Source of the DNA: Hoeflea sp.
GTDB lineage: Bacteria > Pseudomonadota > Alphaproteobacteria > Rhizobiales > Rhizobiaceae
Strand: one strand, 5' to 3'
Assembly: GCF_019084245.1 (NCBI RefSeq)
Contig: NZ_JAHRFE010000022.1
Length of the DNA: 64,000 nt
The translations under genes and the position numbers were made by a program. Under the pieces are notes generated by a model that searched no databases, had not been told where the DNA came from, and saw only the letters and a list, made by a program, of their open reading frames with translations. Positions 4,136 to 17,765 of the stretch are shown in pieces (within the stretch, counting starts at the first letter, position 1; each line of letters begins with the position of its first letter).

Positions 4136-5791
4136 TTAGACCGCGAACATGCTCAAATCGCTCAGGTCCGCGTCCTCATATGAAGACCGGCCCGACGCGC
4201 CCTGCGCGGCCCGCCCTATCGAGATAATCGCCGCAACGGCCGGATCTATCTTGTCAATCGAGCGCTCTTTCAGCGGGCGCCTGTTGCCGCTGGCGTCGGT
4301 ATGCAGGACAACGTTTCCGATCGCCCAGCGCAGCATTGGATTGCCGCCATGGACTAGCCGGCGCTCGAACATGAGCGCCTCAAAGTCAATGACGGGCCGC
4401 GCGAAGGTGGCGATGTTTTGCGGAAACTCGGCAACCGGCAGGCCATCGTCCTCAAGGGATTTCATGATGTCCTGCGCATGCCACCTATCGAAGGCGATTT
4501 CCTCGACCTGAAACCGTTCGGCCAGGTCGCGGATATAGTCCTCGATCATGCCAAGATCGATCGTATCGCCGGGCGTCACAGTCAAGAACCCCTGATCGCG
4601 CCATAGGGCATAGGGGACGTTATCCGTTCGCCGGCGCACCGCACCCTCAGGACAAAAGGTCTGGACGTGCAACGCGTAGCTGTCATCGGCTAGCGGTACC
4701 GCCAACGATACGGCCGCCAAGTCGATGCGCTTGGCCAGGTCGACTCCGATCCATGCGCGCCGCCCCTCGATTGCGGTAAGGTCCAGTTCACCGGAGTTTT
4801 CATCCCAGACGTCTAACGACCATTCGGGGTTAGCCGCGCCATCAAGCCAGACATTCAAATGAAGTTGGCGGAACATTTCCCGATCCGCCGGCCTGTGTTC
4901 GGCTTCGCGCACCATCTGGCGCATGCCGTCGACGTCGGGATAAGGCGGATCGCACGAAAGGCCAGGGTTGACCCGATGCCAAACCGCCTCATCGCGCCAG
5001 TCTTCCTCGGGGTCAGCTTCGAACAGGATCGGGAGAAACGCATTGTCTTCGATCTGTCCGGTGGCGACCGCCTTGGCATATTTGTACATTTCATGGGCAA
5101 TGTTTTCGTGCCCGATTCCGGCCGTGGTGGTGACAACCAAAAGGCTGCCAGGCGTCTTAACAAGGCCGGTTTTGATGGCGTCCCAAAGATCGCGCTTTTT
5201 CCATGCGTGAAGTTCATCGACCAGCGCAAAAACCGGAGTGCGCCCATGAGCCGTTGCCGCGTCGGCTGACATCGCACGATAGAACGCGCCGGATCGCTTG
5301 TGTGCAATCCGGTTTTTCGTGTCTTGAACTTGAAAGGCTTCGGCCAGCCGCGGATGCGCGCCAATTACGCCTTTCATTTCCTCCAAGGCTATGCGCGCCT
5401 GATCGCGGTCAACCGCTGCGCTAACCACCTGCGAACCCGGAATCCGTTCCGGCCCCAAGTGCAGCATTGCCAGCGCGGCGCCCAGCGTGGTCTTGCGGTT
5501 GCCGCGTGGGATTAGTGCGAAAACGGTCTTGATCCGTCGCGTGCCGTCTGGCTTTGTGTCGCCATACACCTTGCGGAGAATGCGCTCCTGCCAGCGGTCC
5601 AATTGAAAGGCCCGCTTAGTGGCCGTGCTCTTTGGATGGCGCAACGCTTTTAGAAACTTGACGGCGCGTTCGCCTTTTCCGTGCGGATCAGGAATGATGG
5701 AGTCGTCAAAAACCCACGCGGGATAGGCAGAAACATTTCTGTCCGAAATGTTTCCTTCAGATATCGCCAAGGGCGTCGTCGTCATCGTCAC
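4136..5791 (-). CDS. terL: phage terminase large subunit (Terminase_1 type)
   Basis: Walker A-like PRGNRKTT, Walker B LVDELHAW, nuclease GVDLA and IDPAVA motifs. Confidence 0.95.
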   Translation of the reverse strand: MTMTTTPLAISEGNISDRNVSAYPAWVFDDSIIPDPHGKGERAVKFLKALRHPKSTATKRAFQLDRWQERILRKVYGDTKPDGTRRIKTVFALIPRGNRKTTLGAALAMLHLGPERIPGSQVVSAAVDRDQARIALEEMKGVIGAHPRLAEAFQVQDTKNRIAHKRSGAFYRAMSADAATAHGRTPVFALVDELHAWKKRDLWDAIKTGLVKTPGSLLVVTTTAGIGHENIAHEMYKYAKAVATGQIEDNAFLPILFEADPEEDWRDEAVWHRVNPGLSCDPPYPDVDGMRQMVREAEHRPADREMFRQLHLNVWLDGAANPEWSLDVWDENSGELDLTAIEGRRAWIGVDLAKRIDLAAVSLAVPLADDSYALHVQTFCPEGAVRRRTDNVPYALWRDQGFLTVTPGDTIDLGMIEDYIRDLAERFQVEEIAFDRWHAQDIMKSLEDDGLPVAEFPQNIATFARPVIDFEALMFERRLVHGGNPMLRWAIGNVVLHTDASGNRRPLKERSIDKIDPAVAAIISIGRAAQGASGRSSYEDADLSDLSMFAV

Positions 5792-6164
5792 CAGGCGCGC
5801 CCCCTTTGTTCTTTGTTCGGCTTGCAGGCGTCAGACCTAGCTCCGCGGCTAGCCGGCGGGCGGCCTCGATCGCCTCTTTAAGGATGGTTGTTTCAGGCCG
5901 GCGCTTAAGGTCGCCGCTTACCGAAACCATTGTCAGCCCTTCGGCTTGCAGGATCGCTTCGGCCTCCCGCTTGCGCGCAACGCAAAGGCAATAGTCCTCG
6001 ACCGTCCCCAATTCGTGCGCGGCAATTTTCCGATCGGCGACTAGCTGCGGAACCACGCGCGCCCATTCGGCGCGGCCGTGCGGTGGCAACCAACGCGGCG
6101 CCGGCGGCGCTTTTGATAGCGCCCCGTCAAGCGAGTTGATTTCCGGTTTCCTGCCCCTGGCCAT
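5757..6164 (-). CDS. terS: phage terminase small subunit (P27 family)
   Basis: MARGRKP start, PPAPRWL, LGLTPASR motifs. Confidence 0.9.
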   Translation of the reverse strand: MARGRKPEINSLDGALSKAPPAPRWLPPHGRAEWARVVPQLVADRKIAAHELGTVEDYCLCVARKREAEAILQAEGLTMVSVSGDLKRRPETTILKEAIEAARRLAAELGLTPASRTKNKGGAPGDDDDDALGDI

Positions 6165-6166
6165 GG

Positions 6167-6745
6167 CTATTCCCAATCGTAAGAGCGGAAATTGTCGAGC
6201 GTCGATTCCGCACCATGTGGAACGCTCATCATGGAAACATCCGAAACGGATTCGCGGTTCTCGAAATAGCTTGACGCGATCTGCAGGATCGCCTCACGAA
6301 TTGCCGCCGGCACGTCGGCCGCAGTGGCGCCATAGCCTGCGACATACCGAACGCGGACGGCATTTATCGTGGCCTTCGGCGTTGGCCACCCGCTTGCCGC
6401 TGGCGCAATCCAGCCCGGCACGCTGTATGTGTCGACCTCATAATCCGTGCCAGCGGTCAAGGTGACTTCAAGGCCGGTATCCGGTGCGACGTATTTGACG
6501 GACGTGACGGACTGCAGCCGCCCAGCGGGCAGCTTAAGAGGGCCGCGCGGGAACGTGTCTAGCACCAACTCGAACTCAGTCGATATGAACGGAAACCCTA
6601 GATAGCGCTCCGCATATTCGCGGGCCGCTGTGATCTTCTTCTCAATGCCAGCGTCTTCATCGGCGTATTCGATGCGCGCGTGACTCTTAAATTCAGCGAC
6701 CGTCACCGGCTCGACGGCCGGCGCGGTTATCGTGATGACAGCCAA
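6167..6745 (-). CDS. head-tail connector (gp6-like, long phiE125 gp8 type)
   Basis: EPVTVAEFKSHARI, VPAAIREAILQ...YFENRE motifs. Confidence 0.85.
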   Translation of the reverse strand: MAVITITAPAVEPVTVAEFKSHARIEYADEDAGIEKKITAAREYAERYLGFPFISTEFELVLDTFPRGPLKLPAGRLQSVTSVKYVAPDTGLEVTLTAGTDYEVDTYSVPGWIAPAASGWPTPKATINAVRVRYVAGYGATAADVPAAIREAILQIASSYFENRESVSDVSMMSVPHGAESTLDNFRSYDWE

Positions 6746-6764
6746 GGCGGCCTCCTAGGTTAAA

Positions 6765-6845
6765 ATTCCTATTTAGGATGAATACAGAACGTCTCTACCC
6801 CGCTGGTCCAGGCCAAACGGCGAGAAATTGACGACCGCCCCCCGG
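6765..6845 (-). other. probable cos/packaging region
   Basis: minus strand GGGGGGCGGTCGTCAATTT...GACCAGCGGGG...CCTAAATAGG, resembles sequences between HNH and terS of HK97-like phages (pattern inference). Confidence 0.45.
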
Positions 6846-6875
6846 TTGTGCGAAGCTTTGAGAATGGGAAACGAG

Positions 6876-7319
6876 ATGAAAGTATTTCTTCGTTTGGTTC
6901 TCGTGCTGTTCGCGAGCACGATAGCGAACGTGTCCCTGGCTTCGGACAAGGAATGTCTTTCTCCCCACACAAAATATGATGTGTGCAAAGCGGCTAGAGA
7001 GATCCAAGAATCGATGGCGCCAATGCTTCCCATGACAATGAATGCAAACATGACGTTGACTTCGGTGGCTGCTATTGGCCCTATATTTGCCTATTACGTT
7101 AGATGGACGCAAACATGGCCTGAGATCGAAGCTGCCATGCAAAACGCTGGCACGACAAAAGCCGCGCTTCTACAGATGATGGATGCACAAACAAACGCGA
7201 TTATTTGCGGGCAGGAAACTACTGCTGCATTCATCGGTCTCGGAGGAACGGTCCAGTACCACTACATCACATCTGATGCAGTCCCCGTCACCACTACAGT
7301 AGTGTCTTCGTGTCCCTGA
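6876..7319 (+). CDS. secreted protein, possibly PA3611/AspS pilotin-like fold (moron)
   Basis: signal peptide MKVFLRLVLVLFASTIANVSLA; LP...T..SV...G...Y; C...GG..QYHY...C pattern; lower GC. Confidence 0.55.
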   Translation: MKVFLRLVLVLFASTIANVSLASDKECLSPHTKYDVCKAAREIQESMAPMLPMTMNANMTLTSVAAIGPIFAYYVRWTQTWPEIEAAMQNAGTTKAALLQMMDAQTNAIICGQETTAAFIGLGGTVQYHYITSDAVPVTTTVVSSCP

Positions 7320-7324
7320 ATTAC

Positions 7325-7687
7325 TCAGCACTGTAGACGCCCGAACGCACCCTCACTCTTGATCGCCTTGCGCCTGTTGCACGTGTCGTGAAATGGCTGC
7401 CAATTCGATCGGCGCCAAAACAGTTTCATGTCGCCTTTCGGCGCCTCTATGTGATCCACCATGTTGGCAGCACGACCGCAGCCACAAGCGCATAGCGGGG
7501 TGCCAAGCGCTGCCAGCCATGCCTTGGACTCCTTGGCCCACTTGCCATCATAGCCGCGCTGTGCGGCGCTCCCACGCGCCAGGTCACTAGCCTTCTGGCG
7601 TGCCTCTGCATTGCGCTGCTGACAGTCGCATCGCGTGCCCTTCGGCACTGCATAGCCGCACGGACAAATGACATTCGGCATGTTCAA
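7325..7687 (-). CDS. HNH endonuclease (terminase-associated)
   Basis: RGYDGKW, CACGCG, VDHI, N...H..CN..K. Confidence 0.9.
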   Translation of the reverse strand: MNMPNVICPCGYAVPKGTRCDCQQRNAEARQKASDLARGSAAQRGYDGKWAKESKAWLAALGTPLCACGCGRAANMVDHIEAPKGDMKLFWRRSNWQPFHDTCNRRKAIKSEGAFGRLQC

Positions 7688-7876
7688 TTCCTCTTTATGA
7701 AAGGGGCGACCATCATCCCGATGGCCGCCCCAGTGCGGTTCGGCAGAACCGCTTTTGCGCGTCGGACATCACCCCGACACTTGGCCACCCATCAGCACGC
7801 TATGACCTTCAGAAGGTGGCGGCTCGTGCTGACAGTTAAGGATTGACCCAACCCCAAGGATACGCCGCCGGATTGG

Positions 7877-8263
7877 TTAGGATACAGGTCGCGAAGCGGC
7901 ATGGCCCTTGACCACGACGGCGCCGGCCGCAATGGACGTGCCGCTGTTCTTTGTGATCACGGTCCGGATATATCGTTTGTTGCCAATGTAAGACTGTTTG
8001 TAGACCGTGCTCGCCGCAAGGGCTGCAGGCAGCGTGCCGATCAAGTCGGCCGCGGCAACGTCGGCAAAGTCTTCCGACGTTGTGGTGTCGGATTCCTGCA
8101 GTTTCGCAGTGAAGTTGCCGCTGGATACGATGGCGCCGGTGTTGACGACTAGGGCAGCAGAGTCGAAGCCCTTAAGGTCGATGGCGGCGCTGGTGTCGGT
8201 TGCGGCAAGCACCTGCGGCACAACGGCCGCCACGACGCCAATATTATGCGAAAGATCGCGCAT
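7877..8263 (-). CDS. conserved head-associated protein following the capsid gene
   Basis: MRDLSHNI...IDLKGFDSA...KLQESDTT; near-identical motifs in the paralogue at 63707. Confidence 0.8.
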   Translation of the reverse strand: MRDLSHNIGVVAAVVPQVLAATDTSAAIDLKGFDSAALVVNTGAIVSSGNFTAKLQESDTTTSEDFADVAAADLIGTLPAALAASTVYKQSYIGNKRYIRTVITKNSGTSIAAGAVVVKGHAASRPVS

Positions 8264-8332
8264 GGGTATTCCTTTCAAAAGGGGAAGCGGGCCGCCGAAG
8301 CGGCCCTATAGGATGTTCCGTATGGAAACGGC

Positions 8333-9475
8333 TTACGATTCAGCAACGCGAAGCTTGCGCAGCGCCTCAGCCATGACCAGATCCGCACCAACGCGGCGAC
8401 GCGCATGGAACCGGACCTTTCCGGTGGTGGCCTGAGTGTAAGGATCTCGCAGCATCGACATCGCCACGCGGTCATAGACGCGGTAAGCGCGGTTGACGTC
8501 GCCGAACAGGATCGGAAATTCCCCGGCGCCGATGTCATCCATATCGACGGCTTCGACAATCGGGCGACCAAGCAGCGTTTCAGGCTGGCCAGCCTGATAG
8601 CTCGGCTGCCAAAGGTAATTGTTGGTTGTGTCCTTCAGCTTGCGAATTGCTGCAATGGTCGTGCCGTTGGCCATCCACACGCCCTTATTCCGGTAGTAGG
8701 CGGGTAGGTCATACATGAGCGTGATCAAGCTATCGGCGGTGATCAGCGTTGCGTGACCGCTCGCGACATCGGTAACGCCAGCCGCGGCCATTATGCCGGT
8801 TGGTTTTTTCACGCCATTGCCGGAAACTAGCGCAACACCTTCAAGCCGGCCGAATTCTTCCGCCAAATCGCTGGCCACTTCGGACTCGACGTTTACCGCG
8901 GCGTCTTCGAGGAGCTGCACAGAAACATCGACATAAGCCGCCATTTCGTGAACCGGAATTTCGACCTGGCCATAAGCGGATTCGGTTTCGGTGCGCGTCT
9001 CGGTTTCGCCAACCCAATTTGCGGTCGGCGTCCCGGTGCGCTTTGGCAGGATAACCGAACCCCGCGACGTGGAACCAACGCGGGCCGCCTGCCGGACAGG
9101 CGAGAATTCAACAATGCCCTTTAAGATTTCCGTGGAAAGCTCAGCGGGAGCCAGATAGCCGCCGCGGGTGTCATCGGCAACGACCAGCGATTTTACTTCG
9201 TCGGCTGGCATACGTTCGGCGCCATATCGCAGGAAGCCTTCAAAGGCTTTGCGCTCCGGTGTCGGCTCATTGTCATTGGCTGCCTTGCCGATGATAGCCG
9301 GCCGCGCCAGCTTCGTTTCAAGTTCGGCAATGCGACCGGCCAAGCCGTTGTCGTTGGCGGCCTTAGCCTTCACCTCAGCGACGGATTCGGCAAGCGCGGC
9401 AAGCGCGGCCTTGACCTCATCAACCGGGTTGTCAGTGGCGGATTTGGTTTCGAGTTTATGAGCAAGATTGCGCAT
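8333..9475 (-). CDS. major capsid protein, HK97 fold
   Basis: GGYLAP, WVGE, YLWQP, LLGRP, FGD motifs; N-terminal coiled delta domain containing two AANDN. Confidence 0.95.
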   Translation of the reverse strand: MRNLAHKLETKSATDNPVDEVKAALAALAESVAEVKAKAANDNGLAGRIAELETKLARPAIIGKAANDNEPTPERKAFEGFLRYGAERMPADEVKSLVVADDTRGGYLAPAELSTEILKGIVEFSPVRQAARVGSTSRGSVILPKRTGTPTANWVGETETRTETESAYGQVEIPVHEMAAYVDVSVQLLEDAAVNVESEVASDLAEEFGRLEGVALVSGNGVKKPTGIMAAAGVTDVASGHATLITADSLITLMYDLPAYYRNKGVWMANGTTIAAIRKLKDTTNNYLWQPSYQAGQPETLLGRPIVEAVDMDDIGAGEFPILFGDVNRAYRVYDRVAMSMLRDPYTQATTGKVRFHARRRVGADLVMAEALRKLRVAES

Positions 9476-10012
9476 CTAGATTCCCTTAATTGTCTGATTG
9501 GTTTTGTTGATCGCCGCGACCAATGCGGCGAAGTCCGTGCCGCTATTTTTGACGGACGTGACGGTCGCGGATTCGTTCATCGGAAACGTCACAATTGACG
9601 CCTCCCGAAGTTCGATTTCGTGGAGAAGGCGGGCGCCTTGTTTGCGGTCCATTTCGTCGCGGATTGTGCGGAATCCGATGGAGATTCCATCAACCGCCTC
9701 AGCCTTCATGAAGGCGTAAACCTCGCGGCCCTTGACTGTATCAAGGAGGATTCTGCCCTCGGCTCGCAGGCCAAAGGCGTCCTCTTCAAATTTGGTCCAT
9801 ACGCCAATCGGCTCCGTCGTGTCGTGCTGCCACAACATCTTGACCTTGCGCGCCGGGTACTTCTGCAGGCTGCTTTTGAACGCGCCAGGCATAACGATAT
9901 CGCCGCCGCGGTCTTTGACTCCGAACACACTGGCATAACCAGAGAACGTGCCGTCTTCTGCGATCGCCTTGATATCAAGCTCAATCGCGGCGCCCTGTGT
10001 GGTGGTGGTCAT
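9476..10012 (-). CDS. HK97-family prohead protease
   Basis: FSGYASVFG, MLWQHD, GISIGF, EASIVTFPMN. Confidence 0.95.
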   Translation of the reverse strand: MTTTTQGAAIELDIKAIAEDGTFSGYASVFGVKDRGGDIVMPGAFKSSLQKYPARKVKMLWQHDTTEPIGVWTKFEEDAFGLRAEGRILLDTVKGREVYAFMKAEAVDGISIGFRTIRDEMDRKQGARLLHEIELREASIVTFPMNESATVTSVKNSGTDFAALVAAINKTNQTIKGI

Positions 10013-11226
10013 GCCGCCGCCTCCGTTGTGGGTTGGTTGTCGTTGGCGGCCGATGGCGCCGTGTCGATCGCCGGATTTGCGAACACCTCGCCGCCGTCAC
10101 GTGGCGCCATGCCAAGCCAGTCGCGCGCTTCATTAGGATTGAGAACGCGCGCCGTGATCAATGTGCTGATAGCGGTTGCGCGTGCCGTTAGGTCGGCTTG
10201 GCTGGTGTCGTCGATGTCGAAGGCGAACCGAAGACCGGAGCGCCGCTCGGCTTCCGTCAGGAGCGCGCGATTGAACGCGCCTTCTAGAACGCGCAGCCAT
10301 GGGATAAGAGTGTATTGAATAAACTCTTTCGCCTGTTGCTCTGAGTTTCCCCAGGTGTTCCGCGTCAATTCGTACAGCATGCCAGGCGGAACCCGGAATG
10401 CCCGCGCGATTTCAAGGATCTGGAATGTTCGGCTAGCCGTAAACTCGCCGTCGACGGACGTAAGCGCCATCTGTTGATAGGTCGCGCCTTCATACAGGAC
10501 GGCCGTTTTGCCGGCGTTGGCCTTGCCGCTAAACGCGGCCTTCCAACCTGCCAACATGGCCTTGACGCCATCCGTACCTAGCTTGTTTGGCGTCTGAATA
10601 ACCCCGCCAGGTCGCGCGCCGTTTGTCCAAAGGCCATTGGCATAACCCTCCATAGCCGACGCCGTGGCGATGGCACTACGCGCCATTGTGAGGGGACATT
10701 TTGTAAACGGGCCGCGGACGTGAAGGATGTTCTTTGCCGATGCGAATTGCCCATTAATCCGATAGCGCGGCTCGCCTGTCTTGTCGTCATAATCAACGGC
10801 AATTATTCCGTCGCGGTAGATGATCAGTTCGCGCGGCTGGTCGTAGACCTTGGTTACATAGGCAATGCCGCCCTGGTCCTTCGTCAATGCGCCGGCGACC
10901 AGATCGCGGATAAGCTCAAAGCCCGATGTCCAGCCGTTCGCCTGTCCGGTAAGCAGCGCCAGCGCCGGGTGGTCGGATACGTCTTCCTCAGCGTCGCCAA
11001 CCTTGCGCTTTAGCTTGATGTCCAGGCTTGGCGCCGCCTCGGCAATGACGCGGACCGCAGCCGACACGGCAGGGACGGACAGCGCTTCCGCGTCGCTGAT
11101 TGTCGAGCCGGCAGGCACCGCGCCGAACAGTTCGAGAAGTTCGGCGGTTGGATCGCCAAGTGATTTTTGCTCGGCCACCACGGGCGGCGCCGCAACAGGC
11201 GTTTCTGATCTACTGAATGGCCACAT
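10009..11226 (-). CDS. HK97-family portal protein
   Basis: NGARPGG, EIARAFRVPP, TPNE-like LNPNEARDWLGM; ends AANDNQPTTEAAA. Confidence 0.95.
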   Translation of the reverse strand: MWPFSRSETPVAAPPVVAEQKSLGDPTAELLELFGAVPAGSTISDAEALSVPAVSAAVRVIAEAAPSLDIKLKRKVGDAEEDVSDHPALALLTGQANGWTSGFELIRDLVAGALTKDQGGIAYVTKVYDQPRELIIYRDGIIAVDYDDKTGEPRYRINGQFASAKNILHVRGPFTKCPLTMARSAIATASAMEGYANGLWTNGARPGGVIQTPNKLGTDGVKAMLAGWKAAFSGKANAGKTAVLYEGATYQQMALTSVDGEFTASRTFQILEIARAFRVPPGMLYELTRNTWGNSEQQAKEFIQYTLIPWLRVLEGAFNRALLTEAERRSGLRFAFDIDDTSQADLTARATAISTLITARVLNPNEARDWLGMAPRDGGEVFANPAIDTAPSAANDNQPTTEAAA

Positions 11227-11638
11227 CGGCAGCCTCCTTTACAATGGACTGCACAATGCTGCCGATTGGAATCACGATCGTCGAAACGTCGAATTTCAGC
11301 CTTGGCACGTCGCGGTCGGAAATGATGCGAGGCGAGCCGCATGCCCGCCTCATGACGGCCGGTGCGACTAGCAAGGCGTCTGCGGCCGGTGGCGTCCGCA
11401 GATTTTGAGCGGCGGCTGCGATAGCCATCAGCCATGAGCGGCCGGCTCGCTCCAGTTCAAAAGCAATGCGAAGCACTGCGACGTCTTGGATGCTAAACCA
11501 GCGCCTGCCCTTGCGCTTCTCCGAGAACAGGACGTCGAGGGTCCGATTGCGGCTGATGATGACGTCTAGATGTTTGCGTGAGAGGCCGACGATTCGCGCG
11601 GCCTCGGCGACTGTGAGGTCGCGCGTTGTCCAGGCCAT
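11210..11638 (-). CDS. MerR-like HTH protein at the head of the packaging operon
   Basis: LTVAEAARIVGLS...GRRWFSIQDV...ELERAG; GGAGG RBS. Confidence 0.7.
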   Translation of the reverse strand: MAWTTRDLTVAEAARIVGLSRKHLDVIISRNRTLDVLFSEKRKGRRWFSIQDVAVLRIAFELERAGRSWLMAIAAAAQNLRTPPAADALLVAPAVMRRACGSPRIISDRDVPRLKFDVSTIVIPIGSIVQSIVKEAADVAIQ

Positions 11639-11681
11639 TGGGCGGCCTCCTACGATGGTTAGAATTTCGAAAAGGCAAACA

Positions 11682-11729
11682 AAAAGCTGCGCCAGTGAAG
11701 CGTCTTGCGTTCAAACTGGCGCAGCTTTT
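11682..11729 (-). terminator. intrinsic terminator-like hairpin upstream of the head operon
   Basis: perfect 15-bp IR AAAAGCTGCGCCAGT / ACTGGCGCAGCTTTT followed on the minus strand by a U-rich run. Confidence 0.6.
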
Positions 11730-11867
11730 ACAACCTCGCACCGTTGCAGGACGCGCCGGCGCGGAGGCGATCAACCCACTGTGCGAAAGCGGGGATCAGT
11801 GAATTGATGGTGAGTAACCGCGCGCGGCCACCCACCGGCCGGCGCGGTGAAGCGCGCCGAAACAGAA

Positions 11868-11891
11868 AAAGGCCGCATCGCTGCGACCTTT
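11868..11891 (-). terminator. intrinsic terminator-like hairpin
   Basis: minus strand AAAGGTCGCA-GCGA-TGCGGCCTTT then TTCTGTTT; GNRA loop. Confidence 0.55.
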
Positions 11892-11934
11892 CCCATAAAT
11901 ACCCTTTGGCGTGCTGAAATGGGGTACCCCAACC

Positions 11935-12654
11935 CTATGCGGCCCTAACCCCGCGCCAATATCGATCAACGATTTCGAAGCCGTCAAATATGCGTGCCCG
12001 CGCCTCGCCCTTGGCGCCCTTCACGCCGGCGCCCAGCAGTTTGCCGATTTCTTCAAGGGTGAGTCCATCAAGAACAGACCATTCAAACGCGGCTAGTATT
12101 TTCGGAACAAAGCCCAGCCTTGCGCGGAGGTAGGCCAAGTCCCGTCCCGCATCGATTGCGGCCAGCAAAGGCCAGTCGCCATTCCATGCCTTGGGCACTG
12201 GCTTGGCGTTCTGGCGCGGGGCGATTGCCACGTTTGCCTTCCGTCCCTCCACCTGTTTCACACCCTTGTCGCGGCCGCTCTCGTCCTGATCGCGCAGGAG
12301 GTAAAGGTCATCAAGCGCCTGGCCTTTCAGTTCGGGCAGATGCGCCATGTCGCTCAACTCTCGATAGCTCTCCGCAAGGCGGAGACAGTAGGCGTTGCCT
12401 TCAGTCTTAAGAAGCTTGGCTAGAGGCCAATCCTGATTATCGTTCGCGGCCTGGCCGCTGTACTTGCTTGATCCGATGCGCGCCGCCTGCGAGGCCAGCC
12501 GCCATTCTAGTGTAGGTCCATCCTCGATCGCCTTGCCGCGGGCTGCGGGCTTTGTCCGCGGTGGTGTCCAGTCATTGGCCGGTTCAATGATTTTCTGCAG
12601 CGTATGTCGGCGATCGAAAACCGCCGGGTCCTTCAAATCCATGTCTTCACCCAT
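11935..12654 (-). CDS. putative late transcription regulator with C-terminal sigma-70 region-4-like HTH
   Basis: DGLTLEEIGKLLG HTH; position between replication and head genes; start 12654 or 12642 uncertain. Confidence 0.55.
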   Translation of the reverse strand: MGEDMDLKDPAVFDRRHTLQKIIEPANDWTPPRTKPAARGKAIEDGPTLEWRLASQAARIGSSKYSGQAANDNQDWPLAKLLKTEGNAYCLRLAESYRELSDMAHLPELKGQALDDLYLLRDQDESGRDKGVKQVEGRKANVAIAPRQNAKPVPKAWNGDWPLLAAIDAGRDLAYLRARLGFVPKILAAFEWSVLDGLTLEEIGKLLGAGVKGAKGEARARIFDGFEIVDRYWRGVRAA

Positions 12655-12870
12655 GGTTAGTGTGTCGTCGTACCGGACAGGCCGGCGGCTAGTGGGTGGC
12701 TGCATAAAAGGAAATAGTAATTTCGCTGAATTTCCGCCACTATATTTATGCGGCCAGCTCAACTAAAAGCGGCGCATATCCGAAATTCGTCAAGTCCTGC
12801 TGTCCAGCTTCTTGCAAACATCAAGAAGCTCATCCCCGCTACGGACCGCTTCACCACTTATCAGCCTCTA

Positions 12871-13002
12871 CACGTTACACGCGTTACATACACATACACT
12901 ACATGTATGTGTATGTAACGCTGTGGTGTAACGCTTGCAGGCTATGATGTGGCCGCGTGACAAGGCGTTACAATTGTAGTGTTATGTAACGCTCTGTAAC
13001 GC
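12871..13002. other. putative replication origin: 18-bp palindrome plus CGTTACA/TGTAACG repeats
   Basis: GCGTTACATACACATACA (12881-12898) / TGTATGTGTATGTAACGC (12904-12921); further (G)CGTTACA or TGTAACGC copies nearby. Confidence 0.65.
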
Positions 13003-14079
13003 TGGTCTAAGATCAAATTTCCCATCAATCTCGATTAAAAATTCATCTGTCAAAGCGGCCCTCTGCCTTGAAAACCTTTGTCTTTTCGTGCCGTCCTTTA
13101 TATCGCCAGCCGCTTCATAGACCGCGGCCCGCCACTGATCTTCAGTCACAGGCGCATTGTCGTTGGCGGCAATGGCGGCCCGTAGAACCGCAGTCGCCTC
13201 GCCAATCGCGCGGCTAGCCTTTTGTAGCGGTTTTGTCACGCTCGGCGGTGCGCAGGGCACAAGAACCGGCGCCGTGGTGGCAATGCCATCGTGCTCGGCG
13301 AGCGTGACCGTTTCCATTCGATAGGTGCGGATCGGCCTGTCTGCCGACTCGTTGTTCTTCATCACTTGAGCCGTTGAAACGTCCCGCTTGCGGGTGATGA
13401 GGATAGACATATCGGCAGCCGCCTGTAGTTGCCCGCCGCCGCGCATGCGCTTCTCTCCGCTCACTGGCGTGTGGTGCACCACGACCACGGTGCAGCCGAA
13501 CGTTTGGCCGTCATGAAAATTTCCGCACCGCGTCGCGTCCGTCAGATTAAACACGGCACGCGCCATCCCGTCGGGGCTGGAATCGCTTACACTCATCGCC
13601 GCCGCCAGGGTGTCAATAACGACAACTTCAATGCTGTCATCCAACATCAGGTTGGCGGTTCGCAAAATCGCGCGCAGGGCATACGGCTCGGCTAAATCAA
13701 TCGGTCCGTCATAAACCAATACGTTGTCAAACGGCTCGCCGTCGTGGTGTTTGATGAACGCATCAATGCGCCGCTCAACCTGGCCCGCGCGTTCGGCCGC
13801 GATGTAAAGCACGTTTGACCGATACGGCAACGTGCCGCCGTCAAAGTCCAGACCAGCCGCAAGCCGGCATGTAACGTCAACAGCAAAAACGGACTTTCCA
13901 GCCTCAGAGGGTCCGTAAATCACAAGCAAGTCATTAGTCGCAACCCAGCCAGGCATGCGCCAATACTTACGAATATCGCGGCCTTCGCGGTTGTGGATCT
14001 TCAAATTGCTGGATATTTCAGAATACAAATTTTGATCTGTATCAAAATCTGACCAGTCAACACTTGACAAATTTGTCAT
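12982..14079 (-). CDS. RepA-type (AAA_25, RecA-like) replicative helicase
   Basis: Walker A GPSEAGKS, Walker B VVIDTL, VVVHH, RGGGQL; no N-terminal primase domain evident. Confidence 0.85.
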   Translation of the reverse strand: MTNLSSVDWSDFDTDQNLYSEISSNLKIHNREGRDIRKYWRMPGWVATNDLLVIYGPSEAGKSVFAVDVTCRLAAGLDFDGGTLPYRSNVLYIAAERAGQVERRIDAFIKHHDGEPFDNVLVYDGPIDLAEPYALRAILRTANLMLDDSIEVVVIDTLAAAMSVSDSSPDGMARAVFNLTDATRCGNFHDGQTFGCTVVVVHHTPVSGEKRMRGGGQLQAAADMSILITRKRDVSTAQVMKNNESADRPIRTYRMETVTLAEHDGIATTAPVLVPCAPPSVTKPLQKASRAIGEATAVLRAAIAANDNAPVTEDQWRAAVYEAAGDIKDGTKRQRFSRQRAALTDEFLIEIDGKFDLRPALQSVT

Positions 14080-14150
14080 AATGCCCTATTCTCCTTTATG
14101 TGTAATTGAACAATTTGCCCGCCCTGATTTTTCAGTGGCGGGCTTTTTTT
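14064..14150 (+). ncRNA. predicted promoter plus ~50-nt counter-transcribed RNA upstream of the helicase gene
   Basis: TTGACA (14064-69)-N17-TATTCT (14087-92); hairpin 14117-14143 followed by T7 on the plus strand only. Confidence 0.55.
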
Positions 14151-14152
14151 GG

Positions 14153-14353
14153 TTAGTCGATAGTGTCTTCCGCTTCCCTGGCTGCGAACTCGGCCATATC
14201 TTTCCGCTTCGCCGGATCCTCGATCCGGATCATTCCTTGAATAACCATAAGCGAGGCAGCCCCGTCAGATGGAAGGCCCACGGCCATCAACTGGCTGATC
14301 GCATCCTCAATAATTTCGCGGGCCTTCTGATTCTTGTAGTCGCCGACCTTCAT
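14153..14353 (-). CDS. small hypothetical protein
   Basis: ATG overlaps the alpA TGA (ATGA); MKVGDYKNQKAREII... Confidence 0.65.
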   Translation of the reverse strand: MKVGDYKNQKAREIIEDAISQLMAVGLPSDGAASLMVIQGMIRIEDPAKRKDMAEFAAREAEDTID

Positions 14354-14562
14354 GCTGCAGCCCTCGCCTGTACCTTTGTCCTTATCCACGCCATCACCTC
14401 AGAGCGAACAAACGCCACTCGCCTGTCGCCAAGCTCTACGGCGATCGGGAATCTGCCTTCGGCGCGGTAGCGGTTGAGCATCGTGCGCGACATGCTGGTC
14501 ATGCGGCAGGCGTCGTTCAACGAAACCAGCGTTGGTTCATTATCGTTCGCGGCTTTTTCCAA
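14350..14562 (-). CDS. alpA: AlpA-family regulator/excisionase
   Basis: AAGGAA RBS plus TTG; SLNDACRMTSMSRTMLNRY...FP.....G.RRVAF..SEV..WI. Confidence 0.88.
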   Translation of the reverse strand: MEKAANDNEPTLVSLNDACRMTSMSRTMLNRYRAEGRFPIAVELGDRRVAFVRSEVMAWIRTKVQARAAA

Positions 14563-14710
14563 TTTAATTTCCTTCCGGGGTTGACAGGTTTGCAGGAAAT
14601 GGTAGATTGACATCAGTGCTTCAATTGGGCTATCTGTTGATTGCTTACATCAGAGATGCCAGTCTGAAATCTAGTTGCATCTTACAAAAATGTCAACATG
14701 GCCGCTTTGG

Positions 14711-15886
14711 CTATTGGCAGTAGTCTGCCCATTCGCCCATCAGAGCGCGCCGCCGCTCCAAAGCATCCGACCGGGCGTAAGACCTTTCAACCGCATCGCC
14801 AACCGCATGACAGAGCGCCGCTTCTGCTATTTCGCGGGGCGCATGCGCGACTTCGGTTGCCCAATCGCGGAAGGTCGATCGGAACCCGTGAACCGTATAG
14901 GCGGCCGCCCCTGCCGATTTCAGCGCCTTTGCCAAGCTCATATCGGAAAGCGGCTTTCCGGCGCGCACGCCGGGGAAAACAAGATCGTTTACTGATTGCG
15001 CTTTCATAACCTTTAGCACCGCCAAGGCCGCGCCTGACAGCGGCACGCGATGCGGCTTGCCTCCCTTCATCCTTATGGCCGGAATCGTCCAGACGGCCGA
15101 CTCTATGTCAATCTCCCCCCATGTCGCGCCTCGGGCTTCCCCACTGCGCGCCGCCGTCAATATGGTGAACTCCAGCGCCCGCGCCCCGACGCCCTTGATC
15201 TTTGCCAGCGACCGCATGAAGGTCGCCACATCTTCATGCGGCATAGATGCGTGATGACGGGCCGCGACAAGCGCGTTCGGCTTGTGCAGCACATGCTCAA
15301 GATTGCCCTTCCACGCGGCTGGATTGTCGCCGGTTCGGTGTCCATCGACGCGGCTCGCGTCCAGAACGCGCTCAATCGATTCCCGCAACTTTTCGGCGGT
15401 TTCCTGCTTCACACCCCAAAGCGGTTCCAAGACCTTTTTGATGTCCTGAATGTCAATGTCGCCGATCGGCCGCCCGCGTATCGCAGCGGCATGGTTATTG
15501 ATTGCGTTCCGCCATCGCGCCTCGGTTTTCGCGCCGCGCCATTTGCCAGCCTTGACGGCGCGGTCAATGAACTTGTCGGCATAGGCTCCAAACAGGACCA
15601 CGGCAGGCGTAGAAGCCTCGACTTCGCGCTTGTCGCGAATCGGATCGACTCCGGCCCGCACCATTGCACGCGCCTTCTGTGCCGCTTCCCGCGCATCTGC
15701 CAGACTAACAGAATGAAGCGGGCCTATGCCCATTTCACGCCGTCTGCCAAACAAGGTGTAGTTGAAGATCCAGTACCGGCCGGTGCCCTTTGTGACCAGC
15801 CACAGACCACCACCATCACGCAGCTTGAGCGCCTTGCTTGCCGCGATTCCTTTGACCGTCAGGACGTTTTTTGTATGGCTCCCCAT
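14711..15886 (-). CDS. int: P4-family tyrosine integrase
   Basis: arm-binding N-terminus DGGGLWL...REMGIG; catalytic TAARSGE, HGFR, RSY. Confidence 0.95.
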   Translation of the reverse strand: MGSHTKNVLTVKGIAASKALKLRDGGGLWLVTKGTGRYWIFNYTLFGRRREMGIGPLHSVSLADAREAAQKARAMVRAGVDPIRDKREVEASTPAVVLFGAYADKFIDRAVKAGKWRGAKTEARWRNAINNHAAAIRGRPIGDIDIQDIKKVLEPLWGVKQETAEKLRESIERVLDASRVDGHRTGDNPAAWKGNLEHVLHKPNALVAARHHASMPHEDVATFMRSLAKIKGVGARALEFTILTAARSGEARGATWGEIDIESAVWTIPAIRMKGGKPHRVPLSGAALAVLKVMKAQSVNDLVFPGVRAGKPLSDMSLAKALKSAGAAAYTVHGFRSTFRDWATEVAHAPREIAEAALCHAVGDAVERSYARSDALERRRALMGEWADYCQ

Positions 15887-16304: not shown

Positions 16305-17765
16305 ATGGCACGCGACACCACATTTGACACGGACGCAGCAATCGTCTGGTTCCGCAATGATTTGCGGGTCAGCGACAACGCCGCGTTGATGGCCGCAAGC
16401 GCGCACAGCGCCGTTGTTCCTGTCTTCATCCGTGAAACCAATTCCCCTGCCCGGCCGCTCGGCGCCGCGCGGACCTGGTGGCTGCACCATTCGCTCCTGC
16501 GGCTTGGCCAGAAGCTCGAAAGCCTCGGCGCGCCGCTGCTTCTGCTAAGCGGTGATCCTGCCCAAATCCTGCCGGACCTGGTCAAGGCCAGCGGCGCGTC
16601 AGCGGTCTACTGGAACCGGCGTTATGATCCGTCGCACAAGGAAGCCGATGCGGCGCTCAAGGCCGAGCTTCAGGCCGACGGGCTGCGTGCCGAAAGCTTC
16701 GCCGGCCAGTTGCTGCACGAACCGTTGCGGCTCCAGACCGGCGGCGGGACCTACTACAAGGTCTACAGCCCGTTCTGGCGGGCGATGGAGCCCGATATCG
16801 AAAAGCGCCCGCCCCTGCCCGCACCGCAGTCGCTCACGCCGCTGTCGTCGGCTCGAGAGCTTGCGTCCGAAGAGCTGGCGAGCTGGAAACTGCTGCCCGT
16901 CAACCCTGACTGGTCCGGCGGCTTGAGCGACGCCTGGACGCCAGGCGAAGACGGCGCCCAGGCGCGGCTCACCGATTTTCTCGAAAACAGGATGCAGGGC
17001 TATGCCGAGCGCCGCGACATTCCCGGCATGGACGCGACCTCGGGGCTGTCGCCGCATCTGGCGAGCGGCGAGATTACGCCAGCGCAGATCATCGACGCGC
17101 TCGGCAATGCCGACTCGGACGCCTCCTCATCCGACCGGAGCAAATTCCGCAAGGAAGTCGGCTGGCGCGAATTCTCCTGGCACCTGCTCGCCAATGAACC
17201 CGGCCTGGCGGACCGCAATCACAATTCCCGGTTCGATGCGTTTCCCTGGATCAACAATGAGAAGACGCTTCATGCCTGGCAGAAGGGCCTCACCGGATAC
17301 CCGATTGTCGACGCAGGCATGCGCGAACTCTGGCGCACCGGCTGGATGCACAACCGCGTCCGCATGGTCGCCGCCTCGTTCCTGACCAAGCATCTGATGA
17401 TCGACTGGCGCCAGGGAGAGGCCTGGTTCTGGGACACGCTCGTGGATGCCGACCCGGCCTCCAATGCCGCAAGTTGGCAATGGGTGGCGGGCTCCGGCGC
17501 GGACGCCGCCCCCTATTTCAGGATCTTCAACCCGATCCTGCAGGGCGAAAAATTCGACCCCGACGGCGACTATGTCCGCAAGAACGTGCCGGAACTGGCT
17601 GAAATGCCTGCCAAATATATCCACAAGCCATGGGAGGCGCCAGACAGCGTGCTTGAAGCCGCAGGCGTCCGCCTTGGCGAAACCTATCCCGAGCCTATTG
17701 TAGACCATCAGGCAGCGCGCCAGCGTGCGCTCGCCGCATACCAGCAGATCAAGGATGCCGCATGA
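16305..17765 (+). CDS. phrB: class I deoxyribodipyrimidine photolyase
   Basis: WFRNDLRV.DN.AL, SGLSPHL..GEI, WREF, TGYPIVDAGMRELW.TGWMHNR.RM. Confidence 0.95.
   Translation: MARDTTFDTDAAIVWFRNDLRVSDNAALMAASAHSAVVPVFIRETNSPARPLGAARTWWLHHSLLRLGQKLESLGAPLLLLSGDPAQILPDLVKASGASAVYWNRRYDPSHKEADAALKAELQADGLRAESFAGQLLHEPLRLQTGGGTYYKVYSPFWRAMEPDIEKRPPLPAPQSLTPLSSARELASEELASWKLLPVNPDWSGGLSDAWTPGEDGAQARLTDFLENRMQGYAERRDIPGMDATSGLSPHLASGEITPAQIIDALGNADSDASSSDRSKFRKEVGWREFSWHLLANEPGLADRNHNSRFDAFPWINNEKTLHAWQKGLTGYPIVDAGMRELWRTGWMHNRVRMVAASFLTKHLMIDWRQGEAWFWDTLVDADPASNAASWQWVAGSGADAAPYFRIFNPILQGEKFDPDGDYVRKNVPELAEMPAKYIHKPWEAPDSVLEAAGVRLGETYPEPIVDHQAARQRALAAYQQIKDAA

Follow-up and report, generated by a model that had tools for sequence, protein, structure and literature searches.

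The alpA locus

A 64,000-nucleotide stretch of contig NZ_JAHRFE010000022.1 from Hoeflea sp. (assembly GCF_019084245.1), referred to here as the window, carries a phage satellite whose gene alpA encodes a small regulatory protein. The N-terminus of this AlpA bears the residues AANDN, the same five with which the SsrA-tagged ends of host proteins begin, and its C-terminus closes with three alanines; together these two ends may constitute a degron written into the gene itself. The coding sequence occupies 14350-14562 on the minus strand and, as an open reading frame (ORF) translated from a TTG, specifies a 70-residue protein (MEKAANDNEP...QARAAA, in full MEKAANDNEPTLVSLNDACRMTSMSR...IRTKVQARAAA) that is terminated by a TGA at 14352-14350. 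The codons for AANDN, a candidate docking site for the adaptor SspB-alpha in the N-terminal tail, lie at 14539-14553 (minus strand), and those for the closing Ala-Ala-Ala, proposed as a degron of the ClpX C-motif-1 type, at 14353-14361 (minus strand). The protein scores 46.4 bits (cutoff 21; E=3.6e-12) with the Pfam family Phage_AlpA (PF05930), a family of MerR-like winged-helix excisionases/regulators, and also matches excisionase/regulator families of PHROG, and the gene for a tyrosine integrase (14711-15886, minus strand, by Pfam) lies directly upstream in the same direction.

Translation probably begins at the TTG. On the minus strand, a Shine-Dalgarno sequence GGAAGGAA (14576-14569) and a 6-nt ATTAAA spacer precede the TTG at 14562-14560, so that start, spacer and ribosome-binding site together span 14560-14576. 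An alternative in-frame ATG upstream (14611-14613, minus strand) would add 17 residues and give an 87-residue form with AANDN at residues 21-25; the Pfam domain covers residues 30-77 of this form, and the motif stands ahead of the domain either way. AlpA homologues are mostly 68-72 residues long and start 1-5 codons ahead of NDN, an ATG is found 1-5 codons 5' of NDN in most of the 52 genomic loci, each centred on alpA, that make up our locus survey, and one homologue places an internal Met at the very point where MEKAANDN begins. The TTG is unchanged in the five closest relatives, their Shine-Dalgarno sequence is GGAAGGAA or, in two of them, GGAGGAG, and the 17-codon extension remains an open frame in all five. 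Alignment of these relatives further reveals that 15 bases of the extension, ATGTCAATCTACCAT, are invariant, that it holds a second box (CTGTCAA), and that its Shine-Dalgarno part has undergone several non-synonymous changes; more distant AlpA homologues lack the extension altogether. The invariant DNA blocks, the non-synonymous changes and the distant homologues without the extension all favour the TTG, and it is probable that the extension is leader or operator DNA. An earlier note on this DNA had read alpA from the TTG as MEKAANDNEP...QARAAA, and this reading is confirmed.

Several conserved boxes surround the start. A promoter-like site for alpA, TTGACA-17-TAGATT (14668-14696, minus strand), lies directly past the int stop codon and is kept in the alignment of relatives. 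Within the extension, the ATGTCAATCTACCAT block and the TGTCAA box together fit a TTGACA-16-TAGATT site on the plus strand, which is conserved and whose transcript would run into the 3' end of int in antisense orientation. In all, three TTGACA/TGTCAA boxes are present in the leader and promoter (14581-14613 and 14668-14696), their blocks being invariant in the five relatives; judged by this pattern, the blocks may serve either as an operator or as a promoter for antisense transcription.

The AlphaFold model of AlpA (mean predicted local distance difference test score, pLDDT, 85) is a small winged-helix fold of the order beta-H-H-beta-beta-H, with a strand at residues 12-14, helices at 15-22 and 26-35, a beta hairpin at 41-52 and a long helix at 53-69. 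The mean pLDDT falls to 54 over residues 1-10, and residues 1-11 are modelled without secondary structure.

The surrounding satellite

Pfam and PHROG matches outline a satellite at 4136-15886, with all of its genes on the minus strand. From the integrase end it reads int, alpA, a 78-aa ORF, a gene for an AAA_25 replicative helicase-like protein (12982-14079, by Pfam and PHROG), a gene for a 239-aa regulator candidate (11935-12654, from its translation) and one for a MerR-like helix-turn-helix (HTH) protein. There follow genes for the portal protein (10009-11226, by Pfam), an S78 prohead protease, an HK97-type major capsid protein (8333-9475, by Pfam) and a phrog_5707 head protein, and finally an HNH-like gene, which was assigned from its motif alone and has no Pfam match, a gp6-type connector, TerS and TerL. 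The element thus holds an integrase, alpA, a replication gene and head genes of its own, no tail genes occur within 4136-15886, and its size falls in the range of ~10-15 kb; judged by gene content, its layout is that of a capsid-forming phage-inducible chromosomal island (cf-PICI) (PMC10085698). Elements of this kind require a tail-providing helper phage for their induction and transfer. No repressor of the CI/S24 type was found among the scanned ORFs of the satellite, in agreement with what the earlier note had remarked.

The 239-aa regulator candidate shares both features of AlpA. As had been noted before, its translation (11935-12654/12762) contains an internal AANDN, within GQAANDNQDWPL (12450-12436), and ends in ...YWRGVRAA. 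In the predicted structure the motif lies in a loop of pLDDT<50 (residues 67-73). Among 101 homologues, NDN is present in 97, inside GQAANDNxDWPL, and an AA end in 88, while the residues leading into that end vary (RKAA, RRAA, RLAA, QRAA); some members carry extra copies of ANDN near either end. Neither Pfam nor NCBIfam provides a family name for this protein or for the 78-aa ORF. Its C-terminal helical domain, however weakly, gives consistent Foldseek matches to sigma region 4 (E>0.1; TM-score 0.71-0.76 on the target), among them SigD4, SigR region 4 and AlgU. Of the label 'late regulator' proposed in the earlier note, the second word is therefore plausible on the basis of this sigma-region-4-like predicted fold, and the first is unsupported.

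AANDN against chance

Within the window ANDN occurs six times, always as AANDN, always on the minus strand, and always within five genes of this one element: twice in the capsid gene, in the N-terminal delta region of the protein (9347-9361 and 9269-9283), and once each in those for the portal, the regulator candidate (12436-12450), the helicase, where it lies past the ATPase domain (13156-13170), and AlpA. The portal copy belongs to a C-terminus, AANDNQPTTEAAA, whose 13 residues resemble the host tag. In a six-frame translation of the whole genome (4.82 Mb, 9.64 M residues), AANDN was found 7 times against 1.8 expected from composition and a mean of 1.6 for the other 29 orderings of its letters. 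The satellite, which at 11.75 kb represents 0.24% of the genome, holds six of the seven copies against ~0.004 expected. The remaining copy is found near the C-terminal third of a tape-measure protein (PF10145; contig C40:117916-121446, plus strand) encoded by a prophage, which is a candidate tail donor.

The bias extends to related elements and to viruses. Plus-strand ORFs at or downstream of alpA in the 52 loci contain 89 copies of ANDN, against 0-2 for each of ten alternative orderings of its letters and 11 for the one that remains, the overlapping NDNA; the opposite strand holds no ANDN and the upstream flanks hold 4. A scan of IMG/VR viral contigs with back-translated AANDNEP returned at least 119 stretches, as against 18 for the permuted control AADNNEP and 28 for AANNDEP. 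Of the 119 listed stretches, 115 lie in frame in long ORFs, on contigs of ~58% G+C.

A short word rich in Ala, Asn and Asp might be expected to arise by composition in a GC-rich genome, and the motif is indeed merely five residues long. The counts from the satellite, from the 52 loci and from the viral contigs all contradict such an origin, as do the six satellite copies themselves, which differ in their synonymous codons (GCM GCS AAY GAY AAY), and chance is rejected. The codon differences also indicate selection on the peptide instead of a DNA repeat, and thereby rule out a repeat as the source. Descent from the ssrA gene is likewise ruled out, as the first Ala of the tag is not encoded there and the gene reads ...V-V-A-N-D-N.

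The host tag and its adaptor

The N-terminal part of an SsrA tag is read by SspB and the C-terminal AA by ClpX; the tag is AANDENYALAA in E. coli (PMC8138137) and AANDNFAEEFAVAA in Caulobacter (cited in PMC9393093). The Hoeflea sp. host has a permuted, alpha-type transfer-messenger RNA (tmRNA) whose encoded tag, as identified by ARAGORN, is ANDNYAEARLAA. With the Ala contributed by the tRNA-like domain, tagged host proteins end in AANDNYAEARLAA, and the AlpA motif corresponds to tag residues 1-5. The host ssrA gene resides on a contig other than that of the satellite, and sspB (PF04386, E=1e-47) lies ~300 bp downstream of it. The closest relatives of the host SspB in the PDB are those of Agrobacterium (2NYS) and Caulobacter (2QAS/2QAZ), and its C-terminus has the conserved peptide ...VVSLDSFRKK. 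ClpX is also present, with its zinc-binding N-domain (zf-C4).

Comparison with 15 other Rhizobiales hosts (16 genomes in all) disclosed tags composed of ANDN, a variable middle and AA. The middles found in the 15 include FAPVAQ, YAEARL, NAQGYAV, YAPVAV, NAKGYAL, NAKEYAL, YAPAAL and EMAL, so that nothing but ANDN and the closing AA is common to all. In nearly all of the 16 genomes ssrA and sspB adjoin. The host SspB itself (contig C27:364753-365259, minus strand) has the sequence ...LETAANDGGDSEDD directly past its substrate-binding domain. This sequence nearly repeats the beginning of the tag (AAND) and has no counterpart at the same place in Agrobacterium 2NYS; it could be a pseudo-substrate or a product of chance.

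Conservation and relocation of the motif in AlpA

Both ends of AlpA are conserved across the family. Among the best 120 of 335 homologues returned by the search, an N-tail NDN precedes the winged-helix core in 117 and NDNxP in 115, and this NDNxP is the only near-invariant part of the motif. A C-terminal AA is present in 99 of the 120 and a final A in 116, against a background of AA ends in 2.8-4.6% of the long ORFs of the host genome. Four homologues bear an additional, complete tag-like end (...ARGAANDNARAQVAA, ...APANDNTRAQAAA). In a wider set of 150 AlpA representatives at 50% identity, the AA end occurs in 12 of the 15 that have an N-tail NDN and in 31 of the 135 that do not. These comparisons lend support to the earlier suggestion, made from this one protein, that AlpA carries a split tag consisting of an adaptor-type site and an AA end.

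Three states of the motif are seen in the AlpAs of the 52 loci. An N-terminal NDN with ...ARAA(A) at the other end is found in Rhizobiaceae, Phyllobacteriaceae and several outlying lineages. The AlpA clade of Nitrobacteraceae (support 99/96) has no N-terminal NDN; its members end instead in ARGANDNAKAAVAA, ARAANDNTRKGVAA or ARGVNDNVKVEAA, where the motif takes the contiguous form ANDN-x5-6-AA, and one Phyllobacterium AlpA has shifted its motif independently. In the Methylocystaceae clade (97/88) NDN is entirely absent, and the rest of those elements is motif-less too. Given that the motif may sit at either end and becomes a contiguous ANDN-x5-6-AA when C-terminal, NDN is, on this comparative evidence, best described as a linear motif that is portable, acts together with the C-terminus and does not belong to the DNA-binding fold. 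Two AlpAs (P0142, P0136) end in ANDD or ANDS forms, and co-variation with a different host tag was considered; the P0142 element (locus L054) has an ordinary ANDN elsewhere, and its ANDD is thus a mere variant.

The same evidence bears on whether the NDNxP tail might be an arm specific to AlpA that contacts DNA, integrase or RNA polymerase, with the alanines simply forming the end of a helix. The fixed distance of NDNxP from the winged-helix core in most AlpAs would suit such an arm, and the C-terminus is indeed predicted to be helical. The tail is, however, acidic to neutral rather than basic and predicted to be disordered, the same motif recurs in unrelated proteins of the same elements, and in AlpA it has become C-terminal in two lineages and has been lost together with the element's other motifs in another. 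An AlpA-specific arm is therefore very unlikely.

Other proteins of satellites and phages

Outside AlpA the consensus of the motif in the surveyed loci is [A/P]-A-N-D-N-x-P. Of the 93 non-AlpA NDN sites, 20 lie no more than 15 aa from the stop codon, mostly with 6-9 residues past NDN, compared with 8 in the host tag. The motif behaves as a property of whole elements: those whose AlpA has NDN contain a mean of 2.07 further ANDN, versus 0.33 in those whose AlpA lacks it, and 28 of 30 elements with an NDN-bearing AlpA have at least one. Among non-AlpA ORFs of at least 100 aa in the 52 loci, an AA end was found in 15 of 44 with an internal ANDN versus 54 of 739 without (odds ratio 6.6, p=1e-6). 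In the viral contigs, ~35 of the listed AANDNEP stretches form ends of the type AANDNEPxxx[AV]A directly before the stop codon, on HTH-plus-phosphoesterase-like, HNH and nuclease proteins, and the site in the capsid delta region recurs in viral-contig capsids. The HTH and phosphoesterase-like proteins make up a phage family of ~420-470 aa with an N-terminal HTH, a GDxxH...GNHD core and the tag-like end (loci L056, L068, L070, L073 and L110 and ~30 others in IMG/VR); no Pfam or NCBIfam name was found for these proteins of ~440 aa.

The placement of the motif in head proteins raises the question of whether ANDN is read by a partner other than SspB-alpha, be it a phage or satellite factor, the S78 prohead protease, ClpAP or Lon, in which case the likeness to SsrA would reflect shared use of a partner or convergence. 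The two copies in the capsid delta region and the one in the portal tail lie where prohead proteases act, the capsid site stands directly ahead of a conserved ...ERKAF..FLR block in many viral contigs, and the SspB motif of the E. coli type is not enriched in viruses. Yet AlpA, the helicase, the regulator and the methylase, HNH and nuclease proteins are not parts of a procapsid, and loci without a head module bear the motif on large primase-helicases. In addition, the C-terminal copies retain the SsrA spacing and the AA end, and no satellite-borne reader co-occurs with the motif, the HslV-like gene past TerL being absent from all other loci that were fetched. A different reader is accordingly regarded as unlikely.

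The distribution of the motif may also be viewed in terms of a decoy, whereby the many copies would occupy SspB-alpha and ClpXP and so blunt tag-directed proteolysis by the host or shield the element's proteins, and the motif of AlpA would add to this titration rather than render AlpA unstable. Such a function would fit a capsid protein that is the most abundant product of the element and has two copies but no AA end, the spread of motifs across many phage and satellite proteins, and the preponderance of internal ANDN without an AA end (29 of 44). A low-copy regulator such as AlpA would nevertheless be ill suited to act as a decoy, both regulator families strongly conserve the AA end, and complete tag-like C-termini predict breakdown of the proteins that bear them. 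For AlpA, a decoy function appears improbable.

AlpA as a candidate bipartite degron

We propose, with a probability of about 0.55, that AlpA carries a genome-encoded bipartite degron in which ANDN docks on SspB-alpha and the AA carboxy-terminus is the signal for ClpX. The flexible N-tail (M-E-K-A-A-N-D-N-E-P) would present ANDN to the adaptor, which would be tethered to the zinc-binding N-domain of ClpX by its conserved C-terminal peptide, and the C-terminus of AlpA (...ARAAA-COOH) would offer its Ala-Ala carboxylate to the ClpX pore. Tethering would concentrate AlpA around ClpXP and so lead to engagement of its C-terminal signal and to its degradation. AlpA would then stay short-lived and leaky expression of alpA would be erased; the protein would accumulate only with a sharp rise in its synthesis or when the capacity of SspB and ClpXP is occupied.

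AlpA shares with an SsrA-type degron the tag-identical adaptor residues, the C-terminal Ala-Ala and a host with both SspB and the ClpX N-domain. It differs in two respects. The adaptor and ClpX sites of the tag are contiguous, whereas in AlpA they sit at opposite termini, 57 residues apart; contiguous adaptor and AA sites do occur in the Nitrobacteraceae AlpAs and in the portal protein of this element. The tag is added co-translationally by tmRNA, whereas the motif of AlpA sits in the alpA frame.

Six observations weigh against the degron. (i) The residue before NDN in the AlpA homologues is A in 55 of 120, D in 20, S in 18 and V in 10, and if SspB-alpha needs an Ala at this position, many AlpAs would be poor binders. 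(ii) AA ends are also common (23%) in AlpAs that have no NDN, and the two halves are thus not strictly coupled. (iii) The AAA end of AlpA closes the predicted helix 53-69 rather than forming a free tail. (iv) Capsid and helicase bear AANDN without an AA end. (v) The hosts of motif-less elements also have SspB and ANDN tags (16 of 16 hosts checked), which rules out a host difference as the cause of motif loss and leaves host distribution non-discriminating. (vi) Viral contigs show no enrichment of AANDENY, the motif of the E. coli type (8 hits versus 36 for the permuted control); tag mimicry is therefore no general SspB-linked habit of phages, and these counts do not support an extension to gammaproteobacteria.

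A further step, put forward in part in the earlier note, would make AlpA a sensor of infection by the helper phage. In the resting cell SspB-alpha and ClpXP would destroy AlpA as it is made, so that no repressor is needed; upon infection, ANDN-bearing phage proteins would saturate SspB-alpha and let AlpA escape, which would turn the satellite on, with its own capsid, at two motifs per subunit, locking the on-state by further titration. Induction by protease saturation gains some plausibility from the abundance of ANDN in phages that infect these hosts, as seen in the viral contigs, the capsid delta regions, the complete tag-like ends and the resident tape-measure protein; as a whole, we consider the titration sensor quite improbable.

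Relation to known systems

The elements of this proposal are individually known: AlpA, cf-PICIs, the SsrA tag, SspB, the ClpX C-motif-1 and split SspB substrates. What appears to be new is that the adaptor-binding half of a host tag is written into proteins of mobile elements, AlpA included. In the searchable literature, short of the primary work on the specificity of SspB-alpha, nothing was found on control of AlpA by proteolysis, on ANDN motifs in phage proteins or on proteins of mobile elements that mimic the part of the host tag bound by the adaptor.

Of the established systems, SsrA/SspB/ClpXP is the closest in sequence. AlpA has the first five residues of the tag and an Ala-Ala-COOH end, and some of its relatives carry contiguous copies with the spacing of the tag; unlike the tag, the AlpA motif is gene-encoded, its halves are separated by 57 residues across a folded domain, and the middle of the tag is not copied.

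A precedent for separated sites is RseA(1-108) of E. coli, which Flynn et al. reportedly described in 2004 as a ClpXP substrate delivered by SspB. SspB and ClpX sites that lie apart work in this substrate (PMC8138137, table 1). RseA, too, is a natural regulator that controls a transcription switch and has its SspB-binding stretch apart from a C-terminal ...VAA signal for ClpX. However, its SspB site is not SsrA-like and its degron becomes accessible only once two cleavages have taken place, whereas AlpA would be constitutively exposed and is a protein of a mobile element.

Ala-Ala ends are also the hallmark of ClpX C-motif-1 substrates, which, as reportedly described by Flynn et al. (2003), end in ...AA. 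In this the AlpA (99 of 120) and regulator (88 of 101) homologues resemble them, but C-motif-1 substrates are not reported to have a paired adaptor site of the SsrA type. The degron classes of ClpX are set out elsewhere (PMC12723719).

With the AlpA proteins of Gram-negative PICIs, cf-PICIs and P4-like elements (PMC10085698) the present AlpA shares its domain, its position next to the integrase and the layout of the satellite, and it differs in that int and alpA are co-directional here. AlpA and tmRNA are linked in CP4-57 as well, through an integration site in ssrA and not through mimicry of the tag, and the present satellite is not integrated at ssrA. In that E. coli system, AlpA-associated excision of CP4-57 is said to disrupt ssrA, as reportedly described by Kirby, Trempy and Gottesman in 1994. 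E. coli AlpA is not known to have such ends.

It is an unsettled question in the field what keeps AlpA-controlled satellites of Gram-negative bacteria silent when no repressor is present, and by what means they detect a helper phage; a built-in, adaptor-assisted degron on AlpA would offer a concrete hypothesis for satellite silence that can be tested with mutants. More broadly, phages and satellites of Alphaproteobacteria appear to have the adaptor-binding part of the tag encoded in many unrelated proteins and, if the proposal is true, these would be a source of natural, tunable degrons for the genetics of Rhizobium, Agrobacterium and Caulobacter.

Neighbouring genes and related satellites

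Past TerL, on the minus strand, lie a gene for an SOS-response-associated peptidase (SRAP, PF02586) at 975-1613 and an HslV-like gene at 1672-2346 that has no Pfam match. A link of the motif to this HslV-like cargo gene was considered and dropped, there being no homologue in any of ~240 loci. A related satellite, L054 (GCA_036549515.1, 6591-19905), has the same gene order; its methylase ends in DNDNRQAELLPVAPAA and its portal protein in ANNNTTPNREAAA. It is located beside a gene for a DNA photolyase, and the satellite of the window also adjoins a photolyase gene (16305-17765), while its closer relatives adjoin TspO or GGDEF genes.

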